Assembly: GCA_046760225.1 (NCBI GenBank)
Contig: JBHIDR010000002.1
Location: forward strand, 2,176 to 26,175
Length of the DNA stretch: 24,000 bases
Source of the DNA: Candidatus Aenigmatarchaeota archaeon
GTDB taxonomy: Archaea > Aenigmatarchaeota > Aenigmatarchaeia > Aenigmatarchaeales > JACQIB01
Direction: 5' to 3'
Position 1 is the first letter of the stretch; each line of letters starts with the position of its first letter. The translations under genes were made by a program, and so were the position numbers. The notes beneath the pieces are model-generated. The model made no database searches and was not told where the DNA came from. It saw nothing but the letters and a program-made list of their open reading frames with translations. This document shows positions 14,277-16,157 of this stretch, piece by piece.

Positions 14277-14360
14277 ATGACAAAGAAAAGAGAAACGTTC
14301 AGGACAGCAGAAGAACTAGCACTCGAGCAAAGAGCAATCTCTGTGGCTGAATTTTTCGAA
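14277..14360 (+). CDS. top6B: DNA topoisomerase VI subunit B, exon 1 (28 codons)
   Basis: Hand translation gives [28 protein letters not shown], which matches the conserved Top6B N-terminal strap up to the middle of the AEFFEKN motif. Confidence 0.75.
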
Positions 14361-14390
14361 ATCCTTTGATTGAAAAATCAGGGACGAATT
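14361..14390 (+). other. candidate 30-nt bulge-helix-bulge (BHB) intron in top6B mRNA
   Basis: In-frame insert containing TGA (14367-14369). The fold is a 4-bp central helix 14355-14358/14385-14388 flanked by 3-nt bulges 14359-14361 and 14389-14391. The inner stem 14362-14371/14376-14384 carries a GAAA loop, and the outer stem is 14348-14354/14392-14398. Canonical cleavage after bulge nt 2 gives exactly 14360^14391. Confidence 0.7.
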
Positions 14391-16157
14391 AAGAATCGCC
14401 ACCTGCTCGGCTTTGACAACCCTGCAAAGGCTTTGCTCACTGTTGTGCGTGAGGCTGTTGACAATTCGTTGGATGCCTGTGAGGATGCAAGGATACTTCC
14501 TGAGATAAAGATAACAGTGCAGGAGCCAAGGGAAATATACTCTATAATGGATGAAGAAGGCGACATCATAGGCGAGTTCATTGTTGAAGGAAAGAAAGTA
14601 AAGTTCATATCAGAAGGCTCGACCCTGCCTCTGGAGAAAAAGGAAGAAAAACGAAAGGGCAATGTCTATGTGTTTGAAAAGGAAGGAAAGAAGATAAAGG
14701 TAAAGGAAATCCTGACTGGTGATGAAAGGCTGATAGAGGTTTCAAGGGGAAAGACAAAGTACAAGGTAACAAAGGCGCCTGTTGACAGGTTCAAGATAAT
14801 TATTGAGGACAATGGCCCTGGAATAGTGAAGGAGCAGATACCGAGCATATTCGGAAGGCTGCTCTATGGTTCAAAGTTCTACAAGCTCAGGCAGAGCAGG
14901 GGCCAGCAGGGTGTGGGAATATCAGCTGCTGTGCTTTATTCCCAGCTCACAACAGGCAAGCCGACCATAATCTATTCAAGGACAGGACCGAAAAAGCCTG
15001 TCAACATAATGCACCTGAGAATCAATGTCACAAAGAACAGGCCTGAAATAATAAAGGAAGAGACAATGAAAGACGGTTTCCGGGAAAGGGGAGTAAGGAT
15101 AGACATGGAAATAGAGGGCAAGTACATGAAGAGGTACCATTCTGTTTTCGAATATCTCAAACAGACAGCAACTGTCAACCCATTTGCGCACATCATATTC
15201 AATTCACCTGACGGCACAAAGCACGAGTTCCCAAGGACAGTGAAAGAGCTGCCCAAACTACCCAAGGACATCAAGCCACACCCGCTCGGAGTGGAAGTGG
15301 GCATGCTTGAAAGGATGTCAAGACTGACAAGGACAAGGAATGTTGTGGGTTTTCTGTCGGGTGACTTCTGCAGGGTAGGTCCCGGGACAGCAAAGAAAAT
15401 TGTTAAGCGAGCAGGAATAAAGGGATCAACAAGCCCGAAGGCACTGACACATGAACAGATCAACAAGCTATGGAGGGCAATACATGCAACTGACTTCATG
15501 AAGCCTCCTCTTGATTGTCTGAGCCCAATAGGTTCGGGTAAACTGGAAGAAGGAATGAGAAAGGAATACAGTCCTGAGTTCGTGTTTGCGGTCTCCAGAC
15601 CACCTTCTGTTTACAGGGGCATGCCCTTCAAGATAGAGGCTGCAATAGCGTATGGTGGCGATGTATCAAAGGAAGGAGCTGTGAAGATTATGCGCTTTGC
15701 AAACAGGGTGCCTTTGCTTTATCAGGCAAGCTCATGCGCAATAACAAAGGCTGTGCACAAGATTGACTGGAAGCACTATGGTCTTGACATGCACGGAACC
15801 ACTCCTTATGGTCCTGCTGTTATAGCAGTTCACATGGCATCTGTATGGATACCTTATACTTCCGAGTCAAAGGAAGCAATAGACCCGTATCCAATAATAA
15901 AAAAGGAAATAAGGCTTGCCCTGCAGGAATGTGGAAGAAAACTGCAGAGATTTGTTTCAGGAAGAAGGAGGGCGCAGGAAGTGCAGAAAAGAATAAGCCT
16001 TTTCGAGAAGTACATACCTGAAATTGCCTTTGCCTTGTCAAACCTTACAGGAGAGAAAAAGGAAAAAATAGTAAAAGATTTTGAAAAGATGCTGAAAAGG
16101 GGGAAGAAAGAAGATGAAGAGGTCGAAAAAGAAAAAGGAGAAGAAGCCAAAGGATAA
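14391..16157 (+). CDS. top6B: DNA topoisomerase VI subunit B, exon 2 (GHKL ATPase, H2TH, transducer)
   Basis: [29 protein letters not shown] (N box), EDNGPGI (G1), [27 protein letters not shown] (G2) and VPLLYQ...[12 protein letters not shown]. The track ORF 14370..16157 uses a TTG inside the candidate intron. Confidence 0.9.
   Translation, partial: [588 protein letters not shown]

Follow-up and report, generated by a model that had tools for sequence, protein, structure and literature searches.

Within the 24,000 nucleotides of DNA analysed here (the window), the 30 nt at positions 14361-14390 very probably constitute a bulge-helix-bulge (BHB) intron in the topoisomerase VI subunit B (Top6B) pre-mRNA of Candidatus Aenigmatarchaeota archaeon, an uncultured DPANN archaeon, so that top6B would probably be, after cbf5, the second archaeal protein-coding gene to undergo splicing. 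A further new observation is that all intron-bearing top6B loci found are linked to an upstream LAGLIDADG gene or its remnant, whereas none of 82 intron-less loci is.

Interruption of top6B and fold of the insert

The region around the insert contains the following features:

14257..14267, + strand: Shine-Dalgarno-like motif GGTGAGGTGAT, 9 nt 5' of the top6B ATG, overlapping the stop of an upstream remnant ORF
14277..14360, + strand: top6B exon 1, 28 codons, starting at ATG 14277
14361..14390, + strand: predicted BHB intron ATCCTTTGATTGAAAAATCAGGGACGAATT, 30 nt, with predicted cuts after 14360 and after 14390
14391..16157, + strand: top6B exon 2, 588 codons and stop, GHKL ATPase and transducer domains
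16114..17214, + strand: top6A, intact, with a 44-nt overlap with the end of top6B

The unspliced frame from ATG 14277 comprises exon 1 followed by Ile-Leu-TGA (TGA 14367-14369), and translation indicates that the top6B frame reopens 3' of the insert. Removal of 14361-14390, or equivalently of 14362-14391, restores a Top6B of 616 aa, and the proposal of the initial annotation that a 30-nt BHB intron splits a conserved Top6B motif was confirmed in that this deletion rebuilds the invariant motif. Residues E28 and K29 lie on either side of the junction and are both invariant in 22 relatives, the window Top6B retains every column that is invariant among these 22 sequences, and the motif in the AEFFEKN region is unbroken in 82 other top6B loci and in the solved Top6B structures 2Q2E and 1MX0. 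In the nearest relatives, L001 and L002 (74-76% at the amino acid level), alignment of the related loci showed the 30 nt to be cleanly absent. No further copy of the 30-nt intron and no tRNA or Rfam matches were detected within the window.

The flanks and the insert fold into a complete BHB motif, composed as follows:

14343..14402, + strand: complete BHB motif with outer helix, central helix, two bulges and inner hairpin
14343-14354/14392-14402, + strand: outer helix, with U14348 bulged and an A14351-A14395 mismatch
14355-14358/14385-14388, + strand: central helix of 4 bp, UUCG/CGAA
14359-14361 (AAA) and 14389-14391 (UUA), + strand: bulges of 3 nt each, on opposite strands
14362-14384, + strand: inner hairpin with a GAAA loop

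The coordinates and pairings proposed earlier are present in the sequence except in the outer helix, where position 14348 is U and not C; in place of the original pairing of 14348-14354 with 14392-14398, a better helix is obtained with U14348 bulged and with C14347-G14398 extending to G14343-C14402. The 14343-14402 hairpin was recovered by RNAfold (z = -3.0), and for the window sequence the canonical register with the 4-bp helix and the minimum free energy (MFE) structure are equal in energy at -17.6 kcal/mol. The predicted cuts, between 14360 and 14361 and between 14390 and 14391, are identical to the junctions defined by homology and restore the invariant Top6B motif. They follow from the assumption that EndA cleaves each bulge 3' of its second nucleotide, which agrees with the rule published for cbf5 introns, where cutting occurs between the second and third bulge nucleotide (PMC2738675). 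A loose BHB pattern gave 123 matches on the + strand of the window and is thus frequent by chance, so that significance derives from the match to the homology-defined junction, where the probability of coincidence, given a motif of comparable quality, is about 7.5e-6 for each pair of positions, and from conservation elsewhere. The outer helix alone is weak evidence because the sequences on either side of the site show some complementarity even in intron-less homologues, with a mode of 6 and a maximum of 9 pairs out of 11, compared with 10 in the window. The best additional candidate from a window-wide BHB search, at 2833-2915, was rejected; it folds like shuffled sequences and lies inside an intact TPR gene.

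Homologous inserts and conservation of the structure

Three independent assemblies, among them the DNA assemblies Logan SRR29324587 and SRR29324583, contain the window insert in identical form, and an assembly artefact is therefore ruled out. By metagenome scanning and protein search, three further top6B loci (L089, L090 and L091) were found to carry a homologous insert of 32 nt at the identical codon boundary, with exons open and conserved on both sides. An uninterrupted frame through these inserts was looked for and was not found: each contains a stop and the 32 nt shift the frame, so that read-through cannot account for them; the predicted BHB cuts in the 32-nt versions likewise restore the Top6B motif.

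Other searches yielded no further case. A genome scan based on a single protein gave nothing, its patterns being too specific, and an alignment-driven genome scan gave 80 loci, many of them bacterial, with no insert at the site in any, a biased result, since a pattern spanning the junction was one of the two used. In metagenomes, a pattern with a fixed 30-nt gap had no match, whereas the variable-gap pattern, scanned in its TTT-first codon variant, found L089 together with L087 and L088, the latter two being chance matches. Viral contigs scanned with both codon variants gave no match, and a third protein search, for N-truncated top6B calls, returned short fragments only.

In L089-L091 the central helix and the 5' bulge are canonical, the 3' site lies inside a larger loop, and the outer helix beside the 3' bulge is reduced to 2-3 A-U pairs. 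As the strict BHB lies 8-9 kcal/mol above the MFE, these motifs are relaxed BHBs. In a structural alignment of four sequences, which represent three distinct introns from 2-3 lineages and were padded by hand, the central 4-bp helix and the inner hairpin are paired in 100% of cells, and overall 95.8% of cells are paired against 43-51% in slid controls. Covariation, which would be expected if the pairings proposed initially are real, was thus found: five pairs are compensatory, with both sides changed, a number equalled in 0 of 500 shuffles and compared with 0-1 in slid controls, and RNAalifold independently recovered the same helix and bulge. Owing to the few sequences and lineages and the hand padding, this covariation is supportive and not decisive. 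At synonymous positions up to about 18 nt from the junction, the window is closer to L089-L091 than to L001/L002, a similarity that co-conversion of the window exon flanks or selection on the outer helix might explain equally well.

Alternatively, top6B could be disrupted and not spliced, being expressed in two pieces or as an N-truncated Top6B of 595 aa that starts at TTG 14370 and lacks the first 28 residues, the hairpin being incidental or regulatory. TTG 14370 within the insert directly adjoins the TGA, a TTG in the exon-2 frame occurs 6-7 codons ahead of K29 in all three intron versions, and the 595-aa product is precisely what gene callers output. However, GGTGA-like motifs are found 5' of many window genes, and the sequence before TTG 14370 contains no Shine-Dalgarno-like motif. 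Exon 1, which in comparison with L001/L002 differs synonymously in 11-12 of 19 codons and non-synonymously in 2, is by these counts still under purifying selection, and the residues that would be lost belong to the motif that is invariant in the 22 relatives and contiguous in 82 of 82 intron-less loci. Truncation also leaves unexplained why the predicted cuts fall exactly at the junction in both the 30-nt and 32-nt versions and why the 4-bp helix shows compensatory change, and this alternative is considered improbable.

Even more remote is ribosome bypassing of the kind known from T4 gene 60, with take-off at AUC 14361 and landing at AUU 14388, or read-through of the UGA adding 10 aa. The Ile codons AUC 14361-63 and AUU 14388-90 do match, the take-off codon is soon followed by a stop and the region contains a hairpin, but the possible match is confined to the window: the 32-nt versions of L089-L091 have AGU or GAU before AAA and no matching landing codon. 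As they also shift the frame, neither codon-matched hopping nor read-through can restore Top6B there, and either event would place extra residues inside the invariant motif. Against read-through, TGA is an ordinary stop that terminates 12 of the 27 window genes, as the initial annotation had maintained.

Neighbouring endonuclease gene and splicing enzymes

Removal of the insert by splicing is the favoured explanation. Upstream of top6B lies the following feature:

14058..14261, + strand: LAGLIDADG homing-endonuclease remnant, 67 aa, C-terminal tail only (...NTYYFNSDILSELFKFLFEYKKPW)

This remnant lies 16 nt upstream of top6B and matches a 364-aa LAGLIDADG_3 protein encoded at L089 (BLASTP E = 4e-15; tblastn 7e-10). 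A full-length LAGLIDADG gene, coding for 472 aa in L091, lies just upstream of top6B in L089, L090 and L091; its products match Pfam LAGLIDADG_3 with E = 4.5e-10, above the cut-off, share 53-80% identity and have conserved IIGASFGDG and SGIIDTDG motifs. Since the 14058-14261 remnant contains no LAGLIDADG motif, the window itself does not count as carrying the domain. An endonuclease gene or its remnant is present in 4 of 4 distinct intron-bearing contigs versus 0 of 82 intron-less top6B loci, and no remnant was found at L001 or L002. Searches of solved structures, phage records and NCBIfam gave no relatives of the endonuclease, and no second copy of exon 1 was found upstream of the endonuclease gene.

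The degenerate endonuclease gene next to top6B could also indicate that top6B is a recent pseudogene and that the insert is debris of a mobile element, for instance the repair scar of a homing-endonuclease cleavage, and the NCBI annotation of top6B consists only of a truncated protein without the ATPase catalytic residues. This is very unlikely: the other 588 codons are intact with all invariant residues kept, top6A is intact, the homologous insert recurs in the three other loci with exons open on both sides, and the helices covary.

The arrangement suggests that the intron and the free-standing endonuclease may form a composite mobile element in which the mini-intron would be protective. One possible, if tentative, form of this idea is collaborative homing, in which the putative endonuclease would target the intron-less top6B site and the BHB intron, by splitting that site, would protect its carrier. 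Repair of the break would copy the intron and the endonuclease gene together, and the host tRNA-splicing enzyme would render the insertion harmless. If true, such an element would account for the position of the intron, where the gene is conserved best, and for its patchy distribution across top6B clades, the remnant in the window would belong to an advanced phase of the homing cycle, and a concrete route of entry of BHB introns into protein-coding genes would be given.

Two endA paralogs claimed to lie downstream proved to be real:

20615..21106, + strand: EndA paralog, beta-like (structural), Tyr kept and catalytic His absent
21650..22180, + strand: EndA paralog, alpha-like (catalytic), Tyr and His present

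Each contains both Pfam EndA domains. The best solved relative of the alpha-like protein is the alpha subunit from N. equitans (3IEY_A), and it has an insert, KGVRPLKRGPKTAREH, without counterpart in the EndA of M. jannaschii, at the position reported for the L3 loop of DPANN EndAs (nomenclature as in PMC5829648). It has Ala at the equivalent of the catalytic Lys156 of M. jannaschii, which counts against splicing. No RtcB gene was found within the window. An insertion that had been suspected between the two EndA genes turned out to be an ordinary nitroreductase gene.

Proposed splicing pathway and comparison with known systems

From the sequence we infer the following pathway. Transcription would start at a putative promoter upstream of ATG 14277. 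In the transcript, exon 1 would pair with exon 2 as the outer helix and the terminal UUCG of exon 1 with a CGAA close to the intron's 3' end, while the rest of the intron would form a hairpin; this pairing would leave the two 3-nt bulges on opposite strands. The predicted EndA alpha/beta pair, encoded 6-8 kb downstream, would cut after 14360 and after 14390, and an RtcB-type RNA ligase would join the exons and probably circularise the 30-mer. The spliced mRNA would then be translated into the 616-aa Top6B with its intact motif, whereas on unspliced RNA translation would end at UGA 14367.

Were another host gene, from a remote phylum and with conserved homologues elsewhere, to be spliced as well, EndA-dependent mRNA splicing would be no one-off. 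If topoisomerase VI is the only type II enzyme of the organism, growth would depend on splicing. Gene calling in Archaea can shorten essential genes unnoticed in this way, and the strict association with a free-standing LAGLIDADG gene provides a mechanism, open to testing, by which BHB introns might originate and move.

Since 2002, cbf5 of some Crenarchaeota has been the sole accepted case of a spliced protein-coding archaeal gene (Watanabe 2002; Yoshinari 2006; Yokobori 2009, PMC2738675). The literature searched, with papers up to 2025, cites no pre-mRNA BHB introns outside crenarchaeal cbf5, and the same statement in the initial annotation therefore agrees with recent papers. The top6B introns resemble those of cbf5 in being short insertions in a protein-coding gene (16-44 nt in cbf5, 30 and 32 nt in top6B), in the BHB or relaxed BHB at their borders with cutting between the second and third bulge nucleotide, and in their location within a protein region of high conservation, with some lengths being multiples of three. 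In both cases the EndA of the organism has two subunits, presence or absence is lineage-specific and gene callers mis-annotate the gene. The host gene differs, however, and by descent the top6B intron lies outside the cbf5 lineage, occurring in DPANN Aenigmatarchaeota and relatives and not in Desulfurococcales/Sulfolobales; similarity in sequence between the two is not expected. Furthermore, cbf5 introns are supported by cDNA and in vitro cleavage whereas the top6B intron is known from DNA, and no adjacent homing-endonuclease gene has been reported for cbf5 introns whereas the top6B introns have one.

Archaeal rRNA BHB introns can carry LAGLIDADG homing endonucleases (PMC2738675), and with BHB introns of rRNA and tRNA the top6B introns share the predicted splicing machinery, the RNA motif and the LAGLIDADG association. 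In contrast to these, the top6B intron is located in an mRNA and is too small to encode anything, and the endonuclease gene stands by itself outside the intron, before exon 1 and some 100 bp 5' of the insertion site.

Collaborative or trans homing is known from phages, the examples being F-CphI and the psbA group I intron, and T4 MobE and the nrdB intron (PMC6083498, PMC2790892). The phage introns belong to group I and splice themselves, and the enzymes are of the Endo VII or HNH type, whereas the top6B case would combine a protein-spliced BHB intron with a LAGLIDADG endonuclease in a cellular archaeon. Common to both systems are a free-standing endonuclease gene that lies, within recombination distance, beside a gene with an endonuclease-less intron, a patchy distribution, and decay of the endonuclease, as is seen in the window remnant.

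The split reading frame of top6B

Translation of exon 1 of top6B (ATG...GAA, 14277-14360, 28 codons) runs into a 30-nt insert (14361-14390, ATCCTTTGATTGAAAAATCAGGGACGAATT) that reads Ile-Leu-TGA in frame, and the same frame resumes at 14391 and continues to a stop at 16157. The long open reading frame is Top6B according to Pfam and is followed by an overlapping top6A. Deletion of 14361-14390 yields a 616-aa protein, the identical product being obtained if 14362-14391 is deleted, and the nearest database relatives of this product are annotated Candidatus Aenigmatarchaeota Top6B proteins. 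Alignment with 21 relatives shows the stretch A24 to P39 to be invariant except for R31, with E28 and K29, both invariant, flanking the junction, and the split motif is unbroken in 82 of 82 other top6B loci examined and also contiguous in the solved Top6B structures from M. mazei and S. shibatae. The initial annotation had proposed this reading frame, with a 30-nt deletion restoring the motif, and both are confirmed by translation and by the invariance among relatives; its statement that TGA is a real stop here also holds, as 12 of the 27 window genes end in TGA. The NCBI protein MFQ6009598.1 (536 aa) lacks the E and N of the conserved motif because its start was placed at a later ATG (window 14547-16157), a truncation that is an annotation casualty of the putative intron.

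The insert is not an artefact; two Logan assemblies from different runs contain contigs that likewise encode the 595-aa product starting at TTG 14370, and these contigs are identical to the window over the aligned 164 nt, which span the 5' UTR, exon 1, the insert and the beginning of exon 2. The two nearest relatives, L001 (76% aa) and L002 (GCA_038999215.1; 74% aa), share with the window the gene order RIO1, KH, top6B, top6A, and L002, with its longer contig, also has the downstream order M54 peptidase, endA, endA, CBS. Both display a clean 30-nt gap at the insert site. Instead of being spliced, the locus might encode a truncated or split protein begun at TTG 14370, or might be a pseudogene. 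A Shine-Dalgarno-like sequence, GGTGAGGTGAT, lies 9 nt before ATG 14277, and no comparable motif is found ahead of TTG 14370. Comparison of the window with L001 and L002 over 19 exon-1 codons gives 11-12 codons with a synonymous difference and only 2 with a non-synonymous one, and this synonymous excess indicates that exon 1 is kept under protein-level selection.

RNA fold and splicing endonuclease genes

RNAfold reproduces the hairpin drawn in the initial annotation (14341-14405; -17.6 kcal/mol, z = -3.0), and in the window the strict bulge-helix-bulge (BHB) register, the RNA shape cut by the archaeal splicing endonuclease EndA, is iso-energetic with the minimum free energy (MFE) structure. 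The base at 14348, which had been given as C, is U in the sequence.

Elements of the BHB in the window
Central helix, strict register: U14355-A14388, U14356-A14387, C14357-G14386, G14358-C14385
Bulges, strict register: AAA 14359-14361 and UUA 14389-14391
Inner hairpin, strict register: nine pairs and a GAAA loop
Outer helix, best drawing: 14354/14392 out to 14343/14402, with an A-A mismatch and U14348 bulged

EndA cuts cbf5 introns between the second and third bulge residues (PMC2738675), and by this rule the predicted cuts fall after 14360 and after 14390, at the homology-defined junctions, as had been proposed. Matches to a loose BHB pattern are frequent by chance (123 on one window strand, and 20 of comparable quality), so the motif alone proves little; the chance of a BHB motif falling on one specified position pair is roughly 1e-5. 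The BHB scan also returned 2833-2915, with long outer and inner helices, which lies inside an intact TPR gene, has z = -0.37 versus shuffled sequences and was discarded as a chance match.

The two endA paralogs reported downstream are real, and both contain N- and C-terminal EndA domains.

Splicing endonuclease genes of the window
20615-21106: beta-like EndA, without the His
21650-22180: alpha-like EndA, most similar to the N. equitans catalytic alpha subunit (3IEY_A, E = 4e-35)

The alpha-like EndA retains two members of the M. jannaschii catalytic triad, Tyr and His, and, in the window as in intron-less L002 (9859-10395), has Ala at the Lys156-equivalent position ('AHNIRANML' versus 'AHSVRKKLL' in M. 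jannaschii). Its insert KGVRPLKRGPKTAREH, which is not present in M. jannaschii EndA, sits where DPANN EndAs reportedly carry the L3 loop. The combination of an alpha-like and a beta-like sequence points to an alpha/beta enzyme, a type of EndA previously linked to pre-mRNA splicing. Within the window, no RNA ligase gene was found.

Homologous inserts and covariation

Scanning a metagenome collection with a degenerate pattern that tolerated 10-40 additional bases at the site led to L089 (JGI Ga0180732_1000022, a 206-kb contig), which reads ...GTGGCGGAATTTTTTGAA in exon 1, ATCTTGTAAGCATATTGTTTGCAGGACAAAGT as insert and AAAAACCGTCAT... in exon 2. A protein search with the endonuclease family encoded upstream of top6B, which has three members among 5.8 billion proteins, yielded two new members and thereby L090 (JGI Ga0502859_0024130), with the same 32-nt insert as L089, and L091 (Logan SRR22315508), with the insert ATCCTGTAAGCTTATTGTTTATAGGACAAGAT. 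All inserts lie at the same E/K codon boundary, start with ATC(C/T)T, read Ile-Leu-stop in the exon-1 frame and end in ...AGG(G)AC(A/G)A(A/G)(A/G/T)T, and from the common site and shared ends it follows that the inserts of L089-L091 share ancestry with the window intron. A comparison of related genomes, suggested initially, thus finds the 30 nt absent from L001 and L002 and homologous inserts in L089-L091; these 32-nt versions are not translated through without a stop, as relatives might have been, but contain a stop and shift the frame. Ribosomal read-through or bypassing would also join the two coding segments. However, the 32-nt inserts shift the frame while exon 1 and exon 2 each remain open and conserved, which excludes stop-codon read-through, and this shift together with the lack of a matching landing codon excludes gene-60-type bypassing.

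A TTG in the exon-2 frame is present 6-7 codons before K29 in all three intron versions (window 14370; L089 11842; L091 2889). Among species-representative genomes, many top-scoring top6B loci are from bacterial MAGs of Planctomycetota, Myxococcota and Acidobacteriota (including L008, L010, L012 and L013) and have the same conserved motif. Inteins occur in top6B of this group at at least 2 different sites (L024 ~880, L055 ~900, L089 11960-13455, L090 ~1440; proteins P0038 and P0047), and L089 top6B has an intein and a BHB intron in one gene.

Covariation was analyzed in a gap-free alignment (A5), made by inserting two Ns into the window sequence at structural indels; it contains four sequences only, from two or three lineages, and was informed by structure. 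In A5, 95.8% of BHB cells are paired versus 43-51% with partners slid by one to three columns, and the central and inner helices show 100% pairing. The pairings are kept, as the initial annotation had asked of a BHB, and five pairs changed on both sides in these four structure-aligned sequences, a number reached in 0 of 500 shuffles; examples are C-G to U-A in the 4-bp helix and U-A to G-C in the inner helix. RNAalifold, applied unaided to A5, predicts the distal outer helix, the 4-bp helix, the 5' 3-nt bulge and the inner hairpin. In L089-L091, just two or three A-U pairs form the outer helix beside the 3' cut and the strict BHB is not the MFE structure; as modelled, their motifs are relaxed BHBs, a form ascribed to two-subunit or loop-bearing EndAs (PMC5829648; PMC2738675). 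Even so, the predicted 3' cut is placed two nt beyond the 4-bp helix, where the junction demands it. Neither a protein from TTG 14370, nor a pseudogene, nor bypassing or read-through accounts at once for the compensatory changes and for the precise geometry of the junction in both length variants. The junction match, the homologous inserts and the covariation support the interpretation offered at the outset, and 14361-14390 is very probably a BHB intron spliced by EndA from top6B mRNA.

The upstream endonuclease gene and comparison with known systems

Directly upstream of top6B and on the same strand, L089 encodes a 364-aa LAGLIDADG_3 protein (10656-11750, E = 4.5e-10), the stop of which lies inside the top6B ribosome-binding region. 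The window ORF 14058-14261 can be aligned with the C-terminal ~80 residues of this protein (E = 4e-15; ...NTYYFNSDILSELFKFLFEYKKPW) and, having no LAGLIDADG motif, is a remnant. L090 and L091 have the same layout of endonuclease gene, top6B exon 1, insert and exon 2, and the IIGASFGDG and SGIIDTDG motifs are kept in all three full-length endonucleases. With tblastn, the endonuclease was matched at 4 of 4 distinct intron-bearing contigs versus 0 of 82 intron-less loci; in L001 and L002 the KH gene adjoins top6B. By their top6B genes, L089-L091 fall into a clade distinct from that of the window; these genes lack the ~80-residue insertion domain of the window gene and share 65-70% identity with it over the N-terminal region. 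The window gene has 74-76% identity overall to those of intron-less L001 and L002. The distribution of the cassette is therefore patchy.

Other features were noted around these genes. A MazG-family gene (window 13751-14056) separates the KH-domain gene from the remnant ORF, neither MazG gene nor remnant being present in L001 and L002. Within the remnant ORF there is a terminator-like hairpin, TTCCGATATACTATCGGAA, with a T run (14204-14240), and a TATA-like TTTTTAAATTTTTATT comes after it, ~40 nt ahead of the top6B start codon; window 10473-11336 (-) encodes an ABC-transporter ATPase with an N-terminal YHS domain. In L089, an RVT_1 reverse-transcriptase ORF (8040-9089, -) is located 1.5 kb upstream of the endonuclease gene, and a separate 93-aa ORF (10335-10616, +) corresponds to the N-terminal extension seen in the 472-aa L091 endonuclease; a frameshift in the L089 endonuclease gene is therefore possible.

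The intron-less DNA site is pseudo-palindromic by virtue of the same exon flanks that pair in the RNA outer helix, and sites of this kind are typical of LAGLIDADG targets. The link between intron and endonuclease would fit schemes such as collaborative homing of cyanophage psbA, in which alleles lacking the intron are cut at its insertion site by a free-standing endonuclease and the intron shields the allele that carries it (PMC6083498), or the 'trans homing' of T4 MobE/nrdB (PMC2790892). A composite element, with endonuclease and intron moving together, is a tentative model that we rate at somewhat below an even chance, and descent of both from one shared ancestor, followed by many losses, is a possible alternative.

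In the mostly open-access full text searched, together with the reference lists of the 2018 and 2025 EndA papers, no BHB intron was reported in a protein-coding gene besides cbf5, in agreement with the initial annotation, and none paired with a free-standing endonuclease. The top6B intron has in common with the cbf5 pre-mRNA introns its size (16-44 nt in cbf5), the cutting rule, a conserved insertion site, a two-subunit EndA and lineage-wise presence or absence. It is not a member of the cbf5 lineage because host gene and phylum both differ. The endonuclease-bearing BHB introns of rRNA are alike in their partners but unlike in layout.
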